64,000 bases of DNA from Ignavibacteria bacterium (GCA_041694835.1 JBGFRZ010000082.1:52266-116265); one strand, 5' to 3'; shown: positions 17,463 through 64,000, counted from the first letter of the stretch. Made by a program: numbers and translations. Notes: generated by a model from the letters alone, not told the origin.

Positions 17463-17971
17463 AAATTGCCTTCGGTAACCCGGCCGCCATAATCTCGCAT
17501 TTTGCTTGATGTTAGGCCCGTATCCTGACCTATAGTCAGAATGACCCGATTCAACATCGGGATCGGCTTTGCGTCCTCCGGTTTCCCGGAGTTTGCCATT
17601 TATCGGACAATCCTTACGTTTCCATCTCCGCCACGGCGGAAGGGGGCTATCAAAATAAAAATGCTACCGAACTTCCGCCCGGTAGCATAAAGATAGGGGG
17701 TCCTAAAACTTGTTGCAAACCACTACAACCGCAACCGCTAACAAATTAAACTTACTACACCTTCTCTCGGTAGCCCGGCCAGCTCCCCCGACATTATGTC
17801 GGGGGCATCGCTCCGATTTCCCGAAACGATTTTGATAGCCCCCTATCTTTAGCTCCGCGGCTTTGCGTCCTCCGGTTTCCCGAAGTTTGCCTTTATCGCA
17901 ATATATATATAATAAAATTTATGACATTTGTCAAGGTTTTTTTAACAGCCGAAATTCTGCCAAAAATTGCA
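17463..17971. other. structured 510-bp non-coding leader/element: two 41-bp direct repeats (17565-17605, 17859-17899) flanking ~250 bp with perfect hairpins and a 15-bp inverted repeat
   Basis: The direct repeat ggctttgcgtcctccggtttcccg(g/a)agtttgcc(a)tttatcg occurs twice. gggggctatcaaaat at 17641 pairs with attttgatagccccc at 17826. The hairpin cccccgacattatgtcggggg has a 9-bp stem and gctaccgaacttccgcccggtagc a 7-bp stem. No ORF >=60 aa lies in this region. Confidence 0.5.
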
Positions 17972-22469: not shown

Positions 22470-23474
22470 CTAAACAGATAGTAATTTTAATTGATGAATA
22501 TGTTGATACCGATAATGATTACGTTTAATCAAAGAATGCTTTTTTTCAATGTCAACTTCTTTCAATCTTCGAATAGCAATTTTTACATATTCACTATTAG
22601 AATCAATTCCAATGTATTTCTTTTCTAATATCTTGGCAGCGACTGTCGTGGTAGCGCTCCCAACAAAAGGGTCTAATATAATGGCATTTTTAGAAAAAGC
22701 CGATAACTGAATCAAATATTCACAGATCGCTAATGGTTTCACTGTTTTATGTAGATTATAATCTCCTTTTTCTTTCTTTGATGGTTTGGGCAACAGGAAC
22801 ACTTTATCAATCTCAGTGTTTATGTTTTCAGTGGTAATTACATTTGCTGGATACATATTTTTACCCAATCTAATATTCGTATTTACCAAACCAACTTTGT
22901 ATTTCAACATGTTGTTTAGATAAGTAGTGTCTGTCGGTTTTTGCGCCACAGCAATAGGTTCAAAACAAGATTTAATCTGCGGGGTCTTCCATCCGTGCAA
23001 TCTTTCTCTAATAATATTTTTTTGGTCATTGCCAGCTCCCATCTTATCAATAAAATGATTAAGCCCCATTGCCTTTGCCTGATTTTGAGTATAGAGCCAC
23101 ATGAAAACATCTCTGATCTCAAATCCCGCATCGTCCAATGCTGATGCCATTCTATGATATAGGCGAGGACTAGAAAATGAAAAGAAAAATCCACCGGGTT
23201 TCAATAATCTGATAATTTCCTTTGATATTTTTAAATACCAACTATAAAATCTGACGCCTTGTTCTCTCTCAAATTTCATTCCAGCTGGCAATGACTTTAT
23301 GATGTAGTGATTGCGTGTATTAGTTACTACTTCATGATTCCATTGGTTGTCCAGTTTATCTAAAAAATACGGGGGGTCAGTTATAACAAGATCTATTGAA
23401 TTGCTTTCAATTTGCGGAAGCACGTTTAATGCATTATCACATATAATTTTATTCAAAAATTTTTTGTTTTTCAT
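22470..23474 (-). CDS. DNA methyltransferase, N6-adenine/N4-cytosine (PF01555-type, DPPY motif)
   Basis: LVITDPPYF is motif IV. ILDPFVGSATTTVAAKILEKKYIGIDSNSEYVKIAIRRL is the C-terminal AdoMet motif I. The gene is visibly AT-richer than its flanks. Confidence 0.8.
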   Translation of the reverse strand: MKNKKFLNKIICDNALNVLPQIESNSIDLVITDPPYFLDKLDNQWNHEVVTNTRNHYIIKSLPAGMKFEREQGVRFYSWYLKISKEIIRLLKPGGFFFSFSSPRLYHRMASALDDAGFEIRDVFMWLYTQNQAKAMGLNHFIDKMGAGNDQKNIIRERLHGWKTPQIKSCFEPIAVAQKPTDTTYLNNMLKYKVGLVNTNIRLGKNMYPANVITTENINTEIDKVFLLPKPSKKEKGDYNLHKTVKPLAICEYLIQLSAFSKNAIILDPFVGSATTTVAAKILEKKYIGIDSNSEYVKIAIRRLKEVDIEKKHSLIKRNHYRYQHIHQLKLLSV

Positions 23475-29833: not shown

Positions 29834-30706
29834 TTATAAAAGTTTAGGTTGTCTTGCAACAATCTTTATATTTTTTTCTGCTATTTCACAATATTCTCGG
29901 CAATTATCTATATAAATATATTTTCTTTCAGTTTTTACACTAACAACTGGAACTGTTCCAGTTCCCCCAAAAGGGTCTAAAACTATATTATCAATGTATG
30001 AATAAAATTTAACTAAACGATATATAAGTTTTTCTGGAAAGGGTGCCGGATGTCCTTTTGGTTGAGTTTGAGGTTTTATGTCCCAAAATGAATTTGAAAA
30101 TTCTATAAATTCCTCTTTTGTAATATCTATCTTTTTAGGTTCTCCCTCTAATTTTTTTTCTTCTTTACTAAACACTAATACGAATTCATACGGTTGAACA
30201 ACATAAGGATTTGATGGAGATTTCCAAGAACCCCAAGCAGTTCTTTTCGAAATTGCTTGTTTATACCACAATATATCACCTCTCATAATATAGCCAATTT
30301 TTCTCATTTGATTAACGACATCTACAAAAAGTGGTTGATATTGTCCGTCAGCCGTCACACTTGGTACATTTATGCAAATTCTACCTCCTTTAATTAAAAC
30401 ACGATAGCATTCAAACCAAACTTTTTCAAGCCAATCTAGATATTCCTTGTAAGGCATATTATCATAATGGTTCTTGTATGGTTTTCCTACATTATATGGT
30501 GGGGATGTAATTATAAGATGAATAAAATTTTCCGGCATTAATTTCATAACTTCTACACAATCACCACAAATAACTTGATTTATAAACCTATTTTCCGATT
30601 GAACAAGAATTTCTTTTTGAGTAATTGTGTGATATGGTATTACCGTTTCTTCCAACAAATTATTCTTTGTTACTTTCTTTTTTTTATATTCCATTGATTT
30701 ATCCAA
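29834..30706 (-). CDS. DNA methyltransferase, N6-adenine/N4-cytosine (PF01555-type, SPPY motif)
   Basis: ITSPPYNVGKPY is motif IV. VLDPFGGTGTVPVVSVKTERKYIYIDNCREYCEIAEKNI is motif I. The gene is AT-rich. Confidence 0.8.
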   Translation of the reverse strand: MDKSMEYKKKKVTKNNLLEETVIPYHTITQKEILVQSENRFINQVICGDCVEVMKLMPENFIHLIITSPPYNVGKPYKNHYDNMPYKEYLDWLEKVWFECYRVLIKGGRICINVPSVTADGQYQPLFVDVVNQMRKIGYIMRGDILWYKQAISKRTAWGSWKSPSNPYVVQPYEFVLVFSKEEKKLEGEPKKIDITKEEFIEFSNSFWDIKPQTQPKGHPAPFPEKLIYRLVKFYSYIDNIVLDPFGGTGTVPVVSVKTERKYIYIDNCREYCEIAEKNIKIVARQPKLL

Positions 30707-43701: not shown

Positions 43702-43787
43702 CGCCGGGGTGGCGGAACTGGCAGACGCAAGGGACTTAAAATCCCTCGGGGGGCAACCTCCATGTGGGTTCGATTCCCACCCTCGGC
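43702..43787 (+). tRNA. tRNA-Leu (anticodon UAA), long variable arm
   Basis: GCCGGGGTGGCGGAACTGGCAGACGC-AAGGGACTTAAAATCCCTC-GGGGGGCAACCTCCATGT-GGGTTCGATTCCCACCCTCGGCA gives a cloverleaf with a 7-bp acceptor stem, an anticodon loop CTTAAAA and a T-arm GGGTTCGATTCCC. A TATAAT lies 6 bp upstream. Confidence 0.8.
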
Positions 43788-43799
43788 AAAAGGAGAATT

Positions 43800-55467: not shown

Positions 55468-56484
55468 ATGAAAACAAAGGTAAAATGTAAACAAAGAGAG
55501 AACAAACAATCGTTTGTAAGAGAGAACGTAACCTCATCACTTTCTTATCGGATAACTATACCAAATTTTGAATATGGTGCTATTTGGGAAGACCCGATTA
55601 GCGGACATAAAATTGGCTGCCTTGATGTATCAAAAAAGGAAGATGTTGAAAGGCTGATGCAGGGCAAAAAAGCAATCTTAGCGGTTCAAGACCCGCCGTA
55701 TAATGTTGATATAAATGACGAGTTTGGAAACTTGCCTTTGGAAAAATACATTAACTGGAGCGAAAAGTGGGTTGATAATACAATAGATATTCTTGATAAA
55801 AATTCCTCTCTTTATATTTGGCTTGGTGCAGATATTAGAAATGCCTTGCAACCACTACCAGATTTTATGATTATGATGAGAAACAAACCCGTTCAAATTA
55901 GAAACTTTATTACAATGAGAAATCAACGGGGGTACGGAACTCAGAAAAACTGGATGGCAATACGGCAAGAATTGCTTTACTACATAAAAGGCGAGCCGAT
56001 TTTTAATGTTCAAGCCGAATATACAGACATACTAAAAAAAACAAAGGGATACTATAAAGAAGTAAACGGAAAAGTTACGGAAAATTTTGAGAGAAGCAAA
56101 TCCTTAACTATCAGAGCAGGAAATGTTTGGCACGATATACAACAGGTTTTCTATTTAATGCATGAGAATGTAGAGGGTTGTTTTGCTCAAAAACCACTTA
56201 AATCAGTAAAAAGAATTATTGAAGCAAGTAGTAATAAGGGCGACATTGTCATAGATTTTTTCGGCCATTCCGGTTCTACTTTGTTGCAAACGGAATTAAG
56301 TAAAAGAAAATGTTATACGATGGATATAAATCCCGCATATTGCAAAATAATGGCCGCCCGCCTGCTCCATTATCGCCGAACAGGCGAAACTGGCTGGGGC
56401 AGGACAAAAATTTTAAAGGATGGGAAAATTTTAGTGCAGGACGAACAATTATTAGGCACACCAACCTTATTAGATTTAATTTAA
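55468..56484 (+). CDS. DNA methyltransferase, N6-adenine/N4-cytosine (PF01555-type, DPPY motif), inserted between gyrB and gyrA
   Basis: AVQDPPYNVDI is motif IV. IDFFGHSGSTLLQTELSKRKCYTMDINPAYCKIMAARL is motif I. The gene is AT-rich. Confidence 0.8.
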   Translation: MKTKVKCKQRENKQSFVRENVTSSLSYRITIPNFEYGAIWEDPISGHKIGCLDVSKKEDVERLMQGKKAILAVQDPPYNVDINDEFGNLPLEKYINWSEKWVDNTIDILDKNSSLYIWLGADIRNALQPLPDFMIMMRNKPVQIRNFITMRNQRGYGTQKNWMAIRQELLYYIKGEPIFNVQAEYTDILKKTKGYYKEVNGKVTENFERSKSLTIRAGNVWHDIQQVFYLMHENVEGCFAQKPLKSVKRIIEASSNKGDIVIDFFGHSGSTLLQTELSKRKCYTMDINPAYCKIMAARLLHYRRTGETGWGRTKILKDGKILVQDEQLLGTPTLLDLI

Positions 56485-57223: not shown

Positions 57224-59746
57224 ATGACGGAACAGAATGAAAAAAATTTAGAAAAAAATCAAAAACAAGAAATCTTACCGACGGGCATAACCCCCAGAAA
57301 CATTGAAGACGAGATGAAGTCGTCATTCATTGATTATTCGATGAGCGTTATAATGAGCCGCGCTCTTCCCGATATTCGCGACGGTTTGAAACCCGTTCAT
57401 CGAAGAATTTTATTCACAATGAAAGAAATGGGTCTTCGACATAACGTTGCATATAAAAAGTCAGCCCGCGTCGTCGGTGATTGCCTTGGAAAGTATCATC
57501 CGCACGGCGACACCGCCGTCTATGATTCAATGGTCAGAATGGCTCAGGATTTTTCGCTCAGATACCCGCTTGTCGACGGACAAGGCAATTTCGGCTCAGT
57601 CGACGGCGATAGCCCTGCCGCTATGAGATACACGGAAGTAAGAATGAAGACCATAGCCGACGAACTCTTGTCAGACCTTGACAAAGAAACGGTGGATTTT
57701 GTCCCGAACTACGACGGTTCACTTGAAGAGCCGTCCATACTTCCAGCAAAACTTCCCAATCTTTTAATCAACGGCTCGTCGGGCATTGCCGTCGGTATGG
57801 CAACGAACATACCGCCGCATAACCTGTCTGAGGTTATAGACGGAACGCTCGCCGTCATCGATGACCCTGAAATAACGGTTCAGGGGATTTCAAAAATCGT
57901 CAAAGGCCCAGATTTTCCGACGGCAGGAATAATTCAAGGAAAATCCGGAATAAAGAGTTATCTTGAAACCGGTCGCGGCTCCGTCAAGATGCGCGCCAAA
58001 GCCGAGCTCGAGGAGATGAAGGGCAACCGCGAGGCGATAATAATAAACGAGCTCCCCTACCAAGTGAACAAAGCGTCCCTGCTTGAAGCCATAGCCGACC
58101 TTGTAAAGGACAAAAAACTCGACGGTATATCAGATCTCAGAGATGAGTCCGACAGAAAAGGGATGAGGGTGGTCATAGAGCTCAAGCGCGACGCAAACGC
58201 TCAGATAGTTTTGAACCAACTGTTCAAGCACACCCAGATGGAGAGTTCGTTCGGCGTAATAATGCTTGCAATCGTCGACGGCAAACCGCGAATATTGAAC
58301 ATAAAACAACTCCTTGAAAACTATATCGAGCACAGAAAAGTAATCGTCATAAGGCGGACAAAATATGAATTAAAAAAAGCCGAGGCTCGCGCCCATATCC
58401 TTGAAGGATTGAAAATCGCTCTCGACCATCTCGACGCCGTCATAAAGACGATAAGAGAATCAAAGGATGTTGAGTCGGCTCGCGAACGTCTGATAGAAAA
58501 ATTCAAACTCACAAAAATTCAGGCGCAGGCGATACTGGAAATGAAACTCCAGCAATTGACAAATCTCGAAAGAAAGAAAATCGACGACGAATATCTTGAG
58601 TTGATAAAGTTGATTGATAAATTGAAATCAATTCTGGCAGATACCCGAAAGGTATTGAACGTCATCAGGACGGAACTGGAAGAACTGAAAGAAAAACACG
58701 GCGACGCCCGCCGCACAAGGATTGTTGCCCAGATGGTCGAACTCGACGAGGAAGATTTGATTCAGCATGAAGAAGTCGCGGTAACGCTTTCGCATACCGG
58801 CTACATTAAAAGGATACCACTCTCTACTTACAGAGCTCAGGGTCGCGGTGGTAGGGGCGTTACGGGAATGACAACGAAAGACGAGGACTTCGTCGAACAT
58901 CTCTTTACGACCGACACTCATGCGTATCTCTTGCTTTTCACGAATAAAGGACGATGTCACTGGCTCAGGGTCTATGAAATTCCCGAAGGAACTCGCGCGG
59001 CGAAAGGCAAGGCGGCGGTTAATTTTATTCAGATCAGCTCCAATGAAAAAATAACGGCGGCCATACCCATCAAGTCATTTGAGGAAGAAAAAGAATCGTA
59101 TCTTCTGATGGCGACAAAAACGGGAACGATAAAGAAGACACCCCTTTCCGAATATTCAAACCCTAGAAAAGGCGGAATAATAGCGCTCAATCTTGAAACC
59201 GGAGATGAACTCATAGATGTCAAGCATACCGACGGCGAATCCGAAGTGCTCATGGCCACCAGAGACGGCATAGCCATAAGATTCAAGGAGACGGATGTCA
59301 GACCGATCGGCCGCGCAGGAAAAGGCGTAAGAGGTATAAAACTTGAAAAAAACGACTCTGTCGTAGGCATGGAAGCCGTCAGAAAAGACGACATATTTCT
59401 TACCGCCACCGAGAACGGCTACGGAAAAAGAACAGAGGTCGGCAAATATCGTCTTCAATCGCGTAGCGGAAAAGGCGTCAAAAATATGAAAACGACCGAT
59501 AGAAACGGAAGAGTCGTAGGGATAAAGAAAGCGATCGATACAGACGACCTTATGCTTATGACTCAAAAAGGCGTGACTATACGGCTTGCGTGTCAGTCAG
59601 TTGGTATAATAGGAAGAAATGTGCAAGGCGTTCGACTTGTGCGTCTTGATGAAGGCGATAAACTTTCTGCCATAGCGACCGTCGTTAAAGAAGAAAACGG
59701 CGACTCGGCCGCTAACCCCGAGAAATCGGAGAAATCTCAGCAGTGA
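57224..59746 (+). CDS. gyrA: DNA gyrase subunit A
   Basis: AMRYTE carries the active-site Tyr region. The QRDR-like region and the C-terminal beta-pinwheel repeats are present. Confidence 0.95.
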
Positions 59747-59812: not shown

Positions 59813-60232
59813 ATGGAAGGCTTCAAGCTAATAAACCACACCGCCGATACAGGGATAGAAGTCGCAGGTCATACCCTTGAAGAGCTTTTTGTAAATTCGG
59901 CTCGCGGCTTATATTGCATACTTCTTGGCGAAAAAGTTGAATCCCGCCTCAAAAAAAAACTTCCCCAAAAAAGCAATATCTCCCTCGATGCCCCGGATAT
60001 AGAAACCCTAATAGTTGAATGGCTTAATGAGATTCTTTTTTTTGCCGTAAATAAAAACAAGTATTTTGATAAAATAGAGTTAAAGATATCTGGCAACGCG
60101 CTGAAAGCGTCGCTTGCCGGCGGCATATTTGAAGGCGGTTTCCGTCACGAGGTAAAATCGACGACATATCACGACTTAAAAATCGAAAAAACAAAAAAAG
60201 GTTACAGAACAAAAATAATATTCGACATCTGA
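59813..60232 (+). CDS. archease
   Basis: MEGFKLINHTADTGIEV and length (139 aa). It lies upstream of rtcB, as is typical. Confidence 0.8.
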   Translation: MEGFKLINHTADTGIEVAGHTLEELFVNSARGLYCILLGEKVESRLKKKLPQKSNISLDAPDIETLIVEWLNEILFFAVNKNKYFDKIELKISGNALKASLAGGIFEGGFRHEVKSTTYHDLKIEKTKKGYRTKIIFDI

Positions 60233-60254: not shown

Positions 60255-61706
60255 ATGGAACTTTCACTTACTAAAGTTGATAGCTACAGGTGGAAAATCG
60301 AAAAAAGTGTTCCAATGAGAGTCGAAGGCTTGATTTTCGCCTCAGAGAAGATGATTCCTCATATACGTTCACAGAAAGCGGTCCAGCAGGTCTCAAATGT
60401 GGCTACGCTTCCTGGAATTGTTGGTATGTCCCTGGCTATGCCGGACATCCACTGGGGATACGGCTTTCCGATAGGTGGCGTGGCTGCTTTCGACGTAAAT
60501 ACAGGAATAATTTCTCCCGGAGGAGTCGGCTACGATATTAATTGTGGAGTGAGGCTTCTGAGAACAAATCTGAAAAAGCAAGACATAAAAATTCCCCCCC
60601 TTGTTGAAGAGCTTTTCAGAAATATCCCCTCGGGCGTGGGCTCGACCGGAAAACTGACACTGACGCAAACAGAAGTAAAAAATGTTTTGGTGGAAGGCGC
60701 CAAGTGGGCGGTAAAAAAAGGATTTGGTTTTCTTGAGGATATTAAACGCACGGAGGAAGGGGGAGCCATGGCCGGCGCCGACTATGATGATGTTTCGGCT
60801 AGGGCGATAGAGAGAGGAAAACCTCAACTCGGAACGCTTGGGGCCGGAAATCACTTTCTCGAGATTCAGGAGCTCGTCGAGATTTACGACGAAAAAGCGG
60901 CGGCGGTTCTCGGAGTATTCAAGGGACAGATAATGATAATGATTCATACCGGTTCCCGCGGGCTCGGGTATCAGGTCTGCGATGACTACCTTAAAATGCT
61001 ACAGCATGCGATTCAAAAATACAACATTTTCCTTCCCGACAGGCAGCTAGCCTGCGCCCCGGTTGATTCGCCCGAAGGCAAGAAATACTTCTCGGCTATG
61101 GCCGCCGCTGCAAACTACGCATGGGCCAACAGGCAACTCATAACCCACTGGACGAGGGAATCATTCATAAGAGCGCTTTCAAAATCAATTTCGGATATCG
61201 GGCTTGAGGTCGTCTATGATGTCGCCCACAACATAGCGAAGTTTGAAGAGCATATCGTTTCCGATGACAATGCCCAAGAAGGCCGTCGGCGACGGCTTCT
61301 TATTCACAGAAAGGGCGCCACGCGTTCTTTTCCCGCGAAGCATCCCGACATTCCGAAAGATTACATAACCGTAGGACAACCCGTGATAGTACCGGGAACG
61401 ATGGGAACCGAGAGCTATCTCCTTATAGGGACAGAATACGCGATGAAAGAAACATGGGGCTCCACTTGCCATGGGGCGGGCCGAATGATGAGCCGCTCCC
61501 AGATTTTAAGACAGGTGAGGGGGGAAGAGTTGAAGAATCGCTTACGCGATCAGGGCATCAGTGTCTTGTCCGAATCATGGAAGACGCTTGCCGAGGAAGC
61601 GCCCGAGGCGTATAAGGATGTCACAGAAGTTGTCGATGTCTGCCACAATGCCGGGATTTCGAAAAAAGTTGCCAAGATGAAACCCCTTGGCGTTATAAAA
61701 GGGTGA
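60255..61706 (+). CDS. rtcB: RNA-splicing ligase RtcB
   Basis: PDIHWGYGFPIGGV, GAGNHFLEIQ and CHGAGR are the conserved RtcB metal- and GTP-binding motifs. Confidence 0.9.
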   Translation: MELSLTKVDSYRWKIEKSVPMRVEGLIFASEKMIPHIRSQKAVQQVSNVATLPGIVGMSLAMPDIHWGYGFPIGGVAAFDVNTGIISPGGVGYDINCGVRLLRTNLKKQDIKIPPLVEELFRNIPSGVGSTGKLTLTQTEVKNVLVEGAKWAVKKGFGFLEDIKRTEEGGAMAGADYDDVSARAIERGKPQLGTLGAGNHFLEIQELVEIYDEKAAAVLGVFKGQIMIMIHTGSRGLGYQVCDDYLKMLQHAIQKYNIFLPDRQLACAPVDSPEGKKYFSAMAAAANYAWANRQLITHWTRESFIRALSKSISDIGLEVVYDVAHNIAKFEEHIVSDDNAQEGRRRRLLIHRKGATRSFPAKHPDIPKDYITVGQPVIVPGTMGTESYLLIGTEYAMKETWGSTCHGAGRMMSRSQILRQVRGEELKNRLRDQGISVLSESWKTLAEEAPEAYKDVTEVVDVCHNAGISKKVAKMKPLGVIKG

Positions 61707-61780
61707 CGCAACTTTATTAAAAATATATTATTTTTTTGTATAATGAGCTCGTTGAAAAACCTTAATCTTTTGAACGATTT

Positions 61781-61885
61781 GGCAGTTTTAGGTTAAAAGT
61801 TGAAATCGTTTAGACCGCAATGTCCGACGAGCAAAGCGAGGAGTTTTGCGGTCTGATTGAAACTTTTAACCGTTAAGAAACTGCC
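61781..61885 (+). ncRNA. candidate cis-regulatory RNA: ~105-nt extended imperfect stem-loop in the leader of the COG1900 homocysteine-synthesis operon
   Basis: ggcagtttt/aaactgcc, ggttaaaagtt/aacttttaacc and agaccgcaa/ttgcggtct are nested complementary pairs around the loop tgtccgacgagcaaagcgaggagt. Confidence 0.35.
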
Positions 61886-61933
61886 CTTTAAGTGAAAAAG
61901 ATGGGTTTTTCAATAATCTCATAATATCTTGCT

Positions 61934-63097
61934 ATGAAGCAAATACGTTCTTATGCAGAAATTAACGAGAAGATAAAAAATGGGAGAGCGGTGGTTCTCA
62001 CCGCCGAAGAATTCATAAAACTCTCAAAAAAAGAAGGGCTCAAATCCGCTGCTAAAAAAGTGGACATAGTCACAACCGCCACTTTCGGTCCGATGTGCTC
62101 TTCGGGCATTATCCTCAACTTCGGACACTCTGATCCGCCAATAAAAATGCAGAGCGTCTGGCTCAACGACGTTCCCACCCACGCGGGTCTTGCCGCCGTG
62201 GACATATATCTCGGCGCGACAGAAATTTCGACGACGAAAGGGATGGAATATGGTGGTGCTCATGTAATAGAAGATCTTATCAGGCGCAATAAAGTAACGC
62301 TCAAGGCCGTTGCCTACGGAACCGACTGCTATCCGAGGAAAGACATAAAAACAAAGTTCACGCTTGATTCAATAAATCAGGCGATAATGCTCAATCCTCG
62401 CAATGCGTACCAGAATTACTCCGTCGCAGTTAACTCGTCAAACAGGACGCTTTACACATACATGGGTGTGCTTCTTCCCAATCTTGGGAACGCTACTTAC
62501 TGTAACGCAAGCCAACTTTCGCCGATGATAAAAGATCCCCTTTACAGAACTATCGGCGTTGGAACGAGGATTTTCTTCGGCGGCGCCGTCGGATATGTAG
62601 CGTGGGAAGGAACTCAACACAATCCAACAAATGAGCGCGATCCGAATACGAAGATACCTTACACTCCATCTGGAACACTCTGTCTCATCGGCGATCTAAA
62701 AAATATGTCGACCGATTTTATCAGGGCCGCTTTGTTTCATAAATATGGAACGACTCTTTATGTCGGCGTTGGTATTCCTATACCTGTTCTGGATGAGGAT
62801 ATGGCAAGACATCTCGCTGTGACCGACGACAAAATTTTCGCTACGATAATCGACTACAGCGTCCCGAAGAGGGCGAAGCCGAAACTAGGAAGGGTTTCGT
62901 ATGCCGAGCTCCGTTCGGGTTACATAGAGATAGAAGGAAAAAAAGTTCCGACGGCTCCACTTTCAAGTTACGCCAAGGCGAGAGAGATTTCCTCAATACT
63001 TAAAAAGTGGATTGAAAGCGGCAAGTTCCCGATCACACAGCCCCTGGAAAGACTTTCCCTTGAAAGCACCTTCAAGCCGCTCGATGTGATGGAGTAA
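61934..63097 (+). CDS. COG1900/DUF39 homocysteine biosynthesis protein (sulfide-dependent, methanogen-type)
   Basis: MKQIRSYAEINEKIKNGRAVVLTAEEF and the overall DUF39 pattern. It is paired with a NIL-ferredoxin gene directly downstream. Confidence 0.7.
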   Translation: MKQIRSYAEINEKIKNGRAVVLTAEEFIKLSKKEGLKSAAKKVDIVTTATFGPMCSSGIILNFGHSDPPIKMQSVWLNDVPTHAGLAAVDIYLGATEISTTKGMEYGGAHVIEDLIRRNKVTLKAVAYGTDCYPRKDIKTKFTLDSINQAIMLNPRNAYQNYSVAVNSSNRTLYTYMGVLLPNLGNATYCNASQLSPMIKDPLYRTIGVGTRIFFGGAVGYVAWEGTQHNPTNERDPNTKIPYTPSGTLCLIGDLKNMSTDFIRAALFHKYGTTLYVGVGIPIPVLDEDMARHLAVTDDKIFATIIDYSVPKRAKPKLGRVSYAELRSGYIEIEGKKVPTAPLSSYAKAREISSILKKWIESGKFPITQPLERLSLESTFKPLDVME

Positions 63098-63099
63098 CT

Positions 63100-63507
63100 A
63101 TGGCGGTTAAACGAATTGTTTTATATTTTCCTCAGAAACTGATAGACAAGCCGATAATCTACCATCTTGTGAAGGATTACGCCCTCGTCACGAATATATT
63201 GAGGGCGAACGTTGAACCTGACGAAGCGGGGAGGATGGTTATCGAGATTTCCGGGACACCTTCGGGTATAAGCAAGGGGATAAAATTTTTAAAGAAGCAA
63301 AAAATAGAGATAGAGTATCTTGCGAGAGAGATTTCTGTAGATGTCAAATCCTGTGTTGACTGCGGTGCCTGCACTGCCGTCTGCCCTCAGGACGCTTTGG
63401 ATATAGGGGAGCCCGACTGGAGGCTTAAATTCGACAAAAACAAATGCATACTCTGTGGTTTATGCGTCCCCGCCTGCCCGGTCGGAGCCATAAAAATAAA
63501 AGTGTAA
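63100..63507 (+). CDS. NIL-domain + 2x[4Fe-4S] ferredoxin partner of COG1900 protein
   Basis: CVDCGACTAVCPQDAL and CILCGLCVPACPVGAI. The N-terminal ~75 aa is NIL-like. Confidence 0.7.
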   Translation: MAVKRIVLYFPQKLIDKPIIYHLVKDYALVTNILRANVEPDEAGRMVIEISGTPSGISKGIKFLKKQKIEIEYLAREISVDVKSCVDCGACTAVCPQDALDIGEPDWRLKFDKNKCILCGLCVPACPVGAIKIKV

Positions 63508-63641: not shown

Positions 63642-64000
63642 GTGAAACATAAATTCTGGGATGTAAGGTCCTACAGAAACTTTTCCGAAAAAGACAAAAA
63701 CGAAAATAGACTTAAATACTTCAACGCGACCGTAGAAGAATCTGACATTTTTTTCCTCGCCGAGAGGGATCTTTCAGAAAATGCAATTAAACTCATAAGG
63801 CGTTTCAGGAAAGATATTGAAAGTTATATCGTAATTCATCCCAATTTTTTGAGAGCATTTACTTCCATCAAAGCGATTGGAAATCCGCCCGATATCGTAA
63901 AAGATATGATTCATTTTTCGAAAATCGCTAATGTCGGCCCGATGGCGGGCGTCGCCGGAGCGATAGCGGAATATGTCGGCAGGGAGCTTTTGAAGTTGAG
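63642..64000 (+). CDS. hypothetical protein, 5' partial at window end (GTG start)
   Basis: The reading frame is open from 63642 to the window end, ending ANVGPMAGVAGAIAEYVGRELLKL. It is not in the track because there is no stop codon. Confidence 0.3.
   Translation, partial: MKHKFWDVRSYRNFSEKDKNENRLKYFNATVEESDIFFLAERDLSENAIKLIRRFRKDIESYIVIHPNFLRAFTSIKAIGNPPDIVKDMIHFSKIANVGPMAGVAGAIAEYVGRELLKL

Follow-up and report, generated by a model that had tools for sequence, protein, structure and literature searches.

A probable small mobile palindrome in the leader of a homocysteine-synthesis gene pair from an Elusimicrobiota-like bacterium

An imperfect palindrome of 176 bp separates a promoter-like site from the start codon of an HcyBio/COG1900 gene in the window studied here (the window being the whole 64-kb stretch of DNA that was analysed), and this palindrome is probably a small mobile element, its mobility being putative. 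As the best explanation, to which we assign a probability of roughly 0.6, we propose that a MITE-like palindrome was inserted into an ancestral rtcB-HcyBio spacer of ~46 nt in the window lineage only, where it would have been mobilised by a transposase acting in trans. Taken by itself, the statement that the hairpin is a lineage-specific insertion and not a conserved regulatory RNA is very likely to be right, and on the question whether the 176-bp element is a bona fide MITE we lean towards a positive answer. The main value of the analysis is a correction, as so conspicuous a hairpin 5' of a methionine-pathway operon is easily catalogued as a candidate riboswitch, while comparison with the nearest relatives points to a recent palindromic insertion instead.

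The gene pair and its genomic setting

The region closes an origin-proximal gene block with the order rnpA, yidC, jag, mnmE, rsmA, dnaA, dnaN, gyrB, a DNA methylase gene, gyrA, archease and rtcB. The GyrA protein encoded in the window is 72–75 % identical to proteins from Elusimicrobia/Endomicrobiales MAGs, and the host appears to be Elusimicrobiota-like. The genes around the palindrome are as follows:

57224–59746, gyrA, 5' of archease
59813–60232, archease, 5' of rtcB (Pfam Archease, E 9e-29)
60255–61706, + strand, rtcB (RNA ligase), upstream neighbour of the HcyBio gene (Pfam RtcB, E 2e-173)
61934–63097, + strand, HcyBio/COG1900 protein of 387 aa (Pfam PF01837, E 6.4e-150, residues 19–366 of 387)
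63100–63507, + strand, NIL-domain ferredoxin of 135 aa with two [4Fe-4S] motifs (NIL, PF09383, E 4e-16)

The earlier note had recognised a COG1900 protein with an adjacent NIL-ferredoxin, which was borne out by the PF01837 and NIL matches, by two Fer4 stretches located C-terminal to the NIL domain (Pfam, E 1.5e-16) and by Cys55 and Cys132 of the HcyBio protein, both of which are invariant in 120 of its 120 closest homologues. The ferredoxin ORF begins 2 nt past the HcyBio stop, with an SD-like GGAG 6 nt 5' of its ATG (63100). Judged from sequence, the first protein is of the type of the catalytic subunit of L-aspartate-semialdehyde sulfurtransferase and the second of the type of its partner subunit, a gene pair that is already known biology and widely annotated. 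Two cysteines are described as nearly universal in this enzyme, namely the essential Cys54 and Cys131 in MA1821 (PMC12068725), and by their position and in the light of that description Cys55 and Cys132 would be the equivalent residues in the window. The CoM-synthase branch of COG1900 is covered by the methanogenesis-marker-16 model of NCBIfam, in which the window protein reaches 119.7 bits, far short of the 364 set as cutoff, and it is therefore placed in the homocysteine branch of COG1900 and not in the CoM-synthase subfamily.

In Methanosarcina acetivorans, MA1821 and MA1822 are likewise adjacent genes that encode a COG1900/HcyBio protein and a small ferredoxin with a NIL domain and two [4Fe-4S] motifs, and MA1821, too, has two conserved cysteines. 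The systems differ in that MA1821 bears a C-terminal CBS pair for SAM-dependent allosteric control (PMC12068725), whereas the window subunit does not, the HcyBio domain filling so much of the 387 residues that no room is left for CBS domains. They also differ in their hosts, that of the window being bacterial. The NIL domain of the ferredoxin subunit is described as methionine-binding (PMC12068725), and control of the homocysteine genes in the window sub-lineage may lie with this domain. A search for metX, metY and metB found none of these genes within the 64-kb window.

Extent of the palindrome and its junctions

The leader between rtcB and the HcyBio gene measures 227 nt (61707–61933) and contains the following features, where L161 and L163 denote contigs of close relatives that lack the palindrome:

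61717–61744, + strand, promoter-like site TTAAAA, 16 nt, TATAAT, including an extended -10 (10 of 12 matches in the promoter scan)
61740–61744, unstranded, direct repeat ATAAT, left copy, putative target-site duplication (sequence and the empty sites of L161 and L163)
61745–61920, unstranded, imperfect palindrome of 176 bp, the inserted element, which begins with GAG and ends with CTC
61745–61771, unstranded, left terminal inverted repeat GAGCTCGTTGAAAAACCTTAATCTTTT (arm-to-arm alignment, inverted-repeat search)
61781–61885, + strand, inner 105-nt stem-loop of three nested stems (inverted repeats and fold)
61895–61920, unstranded, right terminal inverted repeat AAAAAGATGGGTTTTTCAATAATCTC (arm-to-arm alignment, inverted-repeat search)
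61921–61925, unstranded, direct repeat ATAAT, right copy, followed by an 8-nt spacer (61926–61933) and the ATG

A long imperfect hairpin of ~105 nt with three nested complementary segments had been described in the earlier note. Inverted repeats and fold both recover these segments at 61781–88/61878–85, 61791–807/61855–71 and 61812–20/61846–54, so that the hairpin and its inner 105 nt stand, but the full structure extends over 176 nt. Two further outer stems lie beyond the inner part, formed by TTGAAAAACC…ATCTTTT with AAAAAGAT…GGTTTTTCAA and by the terminal GAG/CTC, and 61745–61771 pairs with 61895–61920 to give terminal inverted repeats of ~26 nt, whose ends read GAGnnnnTTGAAAAACC.

Folded on the + strand, the 176-nt palindrome forms 63 base pairs with an MFE of -68.6 kcal/mol, compared with -36.3 ± 4.0 kcal/mol for shuffles (z -8.1), and the leader as a whole, folded as 61707–61940 (234 nt), reaches -75.2 kcal/mol against -43.8 ± 4.0 for dinucleotide shuffles, none of the 200 being as good (z -7.9). 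The - strand of the palindrome yields an MFE of -57.8 and a z of -8.35. As both strands are equally exceptional and also 80 % identical to each other column by column, the signal is that of a DNA palindrome and not of a strand-specific RNA; a covariance model made from both strands scores 194.6 bits on the + strand and 192.4 bits on the - strand. The + strand holds five G-U pairs versus one on the - strand, a non-significant asymmetry that at most suggests some advantage of RNA pairing on the transcribed strand. Overall, the fold does not branch (0 branch points) and makes up one rod, whose largest internal loop measures about 5 x 6 nt, and neither strand of the element contains an ORF of at least 20 aa.

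GTDB genomes and JGI metagenomes held no HcyBio protein closer than 71 % to that of the window. Closer ones were obtained from a collection of 5.8 billion proteins, namely L161 (88 %), L163 (80 %) and L162 (78 %), and their contigs were compared with the window. L161 has rtcB upstream with 47 nt between rtcB and HcyBio, L162 shows the gyrA-archease-rtcB-HcyBio-NIL-ferredoxin order of the window with an rtcB-HcyBio gap of 32 nt, and the L163 contig begins 45 nt 5' of HcyBio with the same promoter-to-ATG distance as L161. According to the leader alignment, the hairpin is absent from the corresponding position in all three, the relatives having one clean gap of about 180 nt versus the window; subtracting 181 nt from the 227-nt leader leaves 46 nt, compared with 47 nt in L161. 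A search with the RtcB protein for further rtcB-hcy junctions returned no relative closer than 74 %.

The junctions mark the boundaries of the inserted segment. Conserved 8 nt before the ATG in L161 and L163 is TTTTTTTGTATAAT, and the empty sites read TTTTTTTGTATAAT-AATTCACT-ATG in L161 and TTTTTTTGTATAAT-ATTTGCAT-ATG in L163. Across the element, the window reads TTTTTTTGTATAAT / GAGCTCGTTGAAAAACC … GGTTTTTCAATAATCTC / ATAAT / ATCTTGCT ATG, with a left junction of TTTTTTTGTATAAT/GAGCTCG and a right junction of AATCTC/ATAAT/ATCTTGCT-ATG. The empty sites of L161 and L163 each contain a single ATAAT and the window has a copy on either side of the element; the distance from ATAAT to the ATG is 8 nt in the window, L161 and L163 alike. 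Setting the empty sites against the window junctions thus shows that ATAAT is duplicated and that the palindrome ends coincide with the insertion boundaries set by L161 and L163. The estimated chance of such a match is about 0.001–0.005, the repeat being only 5 bp in length and AT-rich.

The insertion point is located exactly between the conserved TATAAT/TGTATAAT and the last 8 nt before the start codon, in an intergenic, AT-rich target. Its left flank carries the extended -10 TGTATAAT at 61737–61744 with a T-run just upstream, and the promoter-like site to which this belongs would be a remnant of the ancestral short spacer, with a putative promoter function.

The polarity of the event was derived from HcyBio protein distances. 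Pairwise identities amount to 88.1 % for window-L161, 85.9 % for L163-L162 and 78–85 % for the cross pairs, and the four-point condition is satisfied for ((window, L161), (L163, L162)), also with an outgroup. Since these distances make the window and L161 sisters, the insertion is assigned to the window lineage, and one gain is more parsimonious than two base-precise losses. The reverse history starts from an ancestral palindrome that the relatives lost when the DNA between the two ATAAT repeats was deleted. Such a deletion would leave exactly the empty sequence that is observed, and replication slippage is known to remove hairpins flanked by short direct repeats in this way. Under the grouping found, however, two such deletions would have had to occur independently and with base precision, L162 has a different spacer of 32 nt without any trace of the element, and the element was found in no more distant relative searched. 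We therefore regard ancestral presence followed by loss as improbable and retain an insertion in the window lineage.

This assignment is in line with a wider search. The two-strand covariance model was run over 172 sources, about 1.2 Mb, and the hairpin was absent from all 163 other HcyBio loci among them, the best non-self match over these sources having an E of 0.13.

Regulatory RNA and other alternative identities

A riboswitch or attenuator, SAM/SAH- or methionine-related and without an obvious match to the S-box, was the function originally suggested for the hairpin. The missing S-box match was confirmed, as the Rfam SAM/SAH/T-box scan gave no match at E ≤ 10, whereas the regulatory function itself is not supported. 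A scan of 61500–62200 against 4227 Rfam families at E ≤ 10 (cmscan) returned microRNA-like hairpin noise alone, at ≤23 bits and far under the gathering scores, and Rfam at gathering threshold gave nothing relevant in the whole window. No intrinsic terminator-like site is present in or after the hairpin, and no Shine-Dalgarno precedes the HcyBio ATG, so that there is nothing to sequester. A leader peptide was not found either: the small ORFs of the leader comprise 17, 18 and 7 codons without enrichment in Met or Cys (a single Cys and no internal Met), the first of them starting inside the -10 box. Conservation of the leader upstream of COG1900 genes had been set beforehand as a test of the regulatory proposal, and the outcome was negative in the three closest relatives as well as in the 163 HcyBio loci; by that standard, the riboswitch or attenuator reading is refuted.

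Riboswitch control of HcyBio genes does hold for more distant relatives. SAM-I was detected upstream of HcyBio in 11 of the 38 loci scanned outside the window lineage, which divide into 9 of 20 genome loci (77–97 bits, immediately or about 0.8 kb upstream of HcyBio) and 2 of 18 other metagenome loci. In addition, the Endomicrobiales MAG L004, with a 70 % identical protein, carries an S-box with a 57-nt insertion that scores 42.2 bits vs a gathering score of 44.4. These SAM-I leaders are likewise found 5' of the HcyBio-ferredoxin pair, as is the palindrome, but the window leader differs from them in lacking the four-way junction, the conserved S-box nucleotides, the Rfam score and the terminator. 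No SAM-I was found in L161 and L162, the two close relatives scanned, and no leader of the window sub-lineage is long enough to hold an aptamer.

A lineage-specific cis-regulatory RNA, be it a new riboswitch, an attenuator or a thermosensor, that controls the homocysteine genes would be in keeping with the position 5' of a methionine-pathway operon, with the SAM-I control of homologous genes and the near-threshold S-box of the Endomicrobiales, with the very stable fold and with the excess of G-U pairs on the + strand. Nevertheless, we consider it very unlikely in view of the empty Rfam scan, the unbranched rod without a multi-helix junction or a conserved unpaired core, the equally strong statistics of the antisense strand, and the missing terminator, SD and Met/Cys-codon leader peptide. 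The absence of the hairpin from the 88 %, 80 % and 78 % relatives and from every other searched locus likewise argues against such an RNA, as do boundaries with a direct repeat that are typical of insertion. As the hairpin has no homologues, no covariation can exist.

With its length of about 176 nt and its long, irregular stem, the hairpin also resembles 6S-type rods, and together with the promoter-like site just upstream it could be taken for a separate gene for a small, rod-shaped RNA, for instance a divergent 6S-like RNA, that merely happens to lie upstream of the operon. This reading is extremely unlikely: Rfam gave no match, to 6S or otherwise, and there is no large central bubble beyond the internal loop given above and no terminator after the hairpin. 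The hairpin is absent from the relatives at this position and at every other position searched, and a housekeeping RNA is not expected between target-site-like repeats that split a promoter from its gene.

An artefact of assembly or amplification such as an inverted chimera has to be weighed as well, because the window belongs to a metagenome-assembled genome with one NCBI record, and MDA chimeras can produce palindromes. Chimeric inversions, however, copy adjacent genomic sequence perfectly, whereas the symmetry between the arms of the palindrome is only about 80 % and is broken by indels, the arms are unlike any other part of the window, and the flanks join the sequence of the relatives precisely and in frame. 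We thus see hardly any room for this explanation.

An integron attC site was tried as a further identity and rejected. The end consensus of attC sites is RYYYAAC / GTTRRRY, to which the ends of the element do not fit, no integrase was found, and the genes, being syntenic, are not cassettes.

Likeness to MITEs and possible effect on expression

MITEs are defined by their anatomy, being short elements without coding capacity that have inverted repeats at their termini, a short duplication of an AT-rich target, and empty sites in sister lineages (PMC10969869). At 176 bp and without an ORF of at least 20 aa, the inserted palindrome is within the range of about 50–500 bp of non-coding sequence, its terminal inverted repeats fall exactly on the two ends of the insertion, and ATAAT is present on both flanks, this repeat being short and AT-rich. 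Empty sites are provided by L161, L162 and L163, with polarity taken from the four-point distances.

A comparable build is known from the Correia elements of Neisseria (CREE), the enterobacterial ERIC/IRU and the pneumococcal RUP, which have 100–200 bp, terminal inverted repeats and no ORF, are found in intergenic positions just upstream of a gene with a short target duplication, and give a transcript that is one long hairpin. The window element differs from these by showing no sequence similarity to any searched element, by its single copy so far, and by the lack of an identified IHF site, internal promoter or parent IS. Its duplication also has 5 bp (ATAAT), whereas Correia, ERIC and RUP duplicate TA.

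Multiple copies are a hallmark of a MITE family. No second copy was detected in the 64 kb of this genome, where blastn-short, nhmmer and the covariance model returned the element itself alone, nor in 134 kb from 11 related Elusimicrobiota contigs, nor in the 163 HcyBio loci, which together with the relatives amount to about 1.2 Mb. Exact patterns of the inner stem, the pair of terminal inverted repeats and the second stem gave either no match or chance-level matches without extended similarity in viral contigs, a blastn search of plasmid and phage records gave no match to the element, and no transposase domain was present in any ORF of the 64-kb window. If confirmed as a MITE, the palindrome would be the first small mobile element described for this poorly sampled Elusimicrobiota lineage.

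Insertions of MITEs between a promoter and a gene are documented, and these act through promoters or through RNase III cleavage; Correia elements located downstream of a promoter, for example, undergo RNase III cleavage and can also supply promoters (PMC10969869). Both L161 and L163 lack an SD and have 8 nt from the extended -10 to the ATG, which implies a near-leaderless mRNA in the two relatives, and the ancestral HcyBio-ferredoxin mRNA was probably near-leaderless as judged from these spacers. In the window, the promoter scan found the old promoter at 61717–61744 and nothing inside the element, and the duplicated CATAAT before the HcyBio ATG is without a TG extension and without any -35. 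Taken together, this makes a transcript start near 61751 most likely, which would be driven by the old promoter and fall about 7 nt into the element.

The resulting 5' UTR would measure ~180 nt (about 182), consist almost wholly of one double-stranded stem and end 14 nt before an SD-less AUG. Should the stem have an effect, it would be expected to alter mRNA stability or translation constitutively and not to sense a metabolite, for instance as an RNase III substrate or as a 5' stabiliser by analogy with Correia and ERIC elements (PMC10969869). Going further, one might imagine that the mobile palindrome was co-opted as a new 5'-UTR regulator of sulfide-dependent homocysteine synthesis, either an RNase III/stability switch or a ligand-responsive rod, that replaces the SAM-I of other lineages and turned a near-leaderless mRNA into one with a structured leader; we hold this to be quite improbable. 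If it is confirmed as a MITE, the element would also offer a natural experiment, in which ~180 nt of double-stranded RNA have been placed between a promoter and its probably near-leaderless start codon. Downstream of the element, the HcyBio and ferredoxin genes are both intact.

Start region and upstream spacer of the HcyBio gene

Among the closest relatives of the window, the extended −10 element next to the HcyBio (COG1900) gene could be followed in contigs L161 and L163.

L161 978-1007; L163 24-48; window 61731-61744 and 61920-61936: extended −10 TTTTTTTGTATAAT and HcyBio start region

In both relatives TTTTTTTGTATAAT is kept exactly 8 nt upstream of the HcyBio ATG. As this distance is combined with the lack of a Shine-Dalgarno sequence before the ATG at the TTTTTTTGTATAAT-bearing starts of the window, L161 and L163, the arrangement suggests that the HcyBio mRNA of this lineage is near-leaderless. 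The third close relative, L162, carries a 32-nt spacer of different sequence without the motif.

We furthermore compared the last 300 nt before HcyBio in four members of the clade with about 70 % HcyBio identity (L001, L002, L003 and L005), where the spacer from the preceding gene was found to be variable. It is short and AT-rich in L001 and hardly present in L005. In L003 it contains a hairpin-like, GC-rich insert, and in L002 a GC-rich unit of about 90-100 nt is repeated so that two copies lie in tandem. Judging from these sequences, the junction upstream of HcyBio seems prone to small insertions in lineages besides that of the window. An S-box leader was detected upstream of the HcyBio gene in the Endomicrobiales MAG L004.

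L004 2773-2913: S-box (SAM-I) leader

Its score of 42.2 bits (E 2e-8) lies just under the Rfam gathering score of 44.4 because of a 57-nt insertion located in the P2 region, and the leader would be overlooked by standard annotation.

Gene order around the homocysteine pair

In seven relatives with 81-83 % identical GyrA (L179 and L181-L186), rtcB directly follows gyrA with no archease gene in between, and large proteins without Pfam match are encoded downstream of rtcB in place of the HcyBio/NIL-ferredoxin pair. It follows that only a narrow sub-lineage, comprising the window, L161 and L162, has the homocysteine pair placed after rtcB.

A partial ORF follows the ferredoxin gene.

63642-64000, running off the end: partial ORF (KHKFWDVRSY…MAGVAGAIAEYVG)

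It has no match in Pfam, and its position is occupied by arginyl-tRNA synthetase in L162. Its motif may resemble ApbE-like/UPF0280 proteins, which are linked to the sulfide assimilation of methanogens.

Further features of the window

The coding strand switches near 43.9 kb, adjoining the block rnpA-yidC-jag-mnmE-rsmA-dnaA-dnaN-gyrB-gyrA (region about 43.6-57 kb), which together probably mark the chromosomal replication origin region.

43703-43788: tRNA
22470-23474, 29834-30706 and 55468-56484: three N6/N4 DNA-methylase genes (PF01555)

One of these three methylase genes within 64 kb is wedged between gyrB and gyrA, a position at which the relatives L179 and L180 encode a methylase and an HNH endonuclease.

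17471-17607 and 17765-17900, minus strand: tandem pair of c-di-GMP-I riboswitch matches (RF01051, 45.2 bits; GGC variant RF03167, 60 bits)

The tandem matches sit upstream of a minus-strand operon encoding TPR/UPF0164 and FliG-like+TPR proteins and a 1212-aa fn3/CHU_C protein, as well as a 122-aa protein and two giant proteins (1616 and 1015 aa), these last three without Pfam match. At 17641-17851 there are inverted repeats that extend into the second aptamer.
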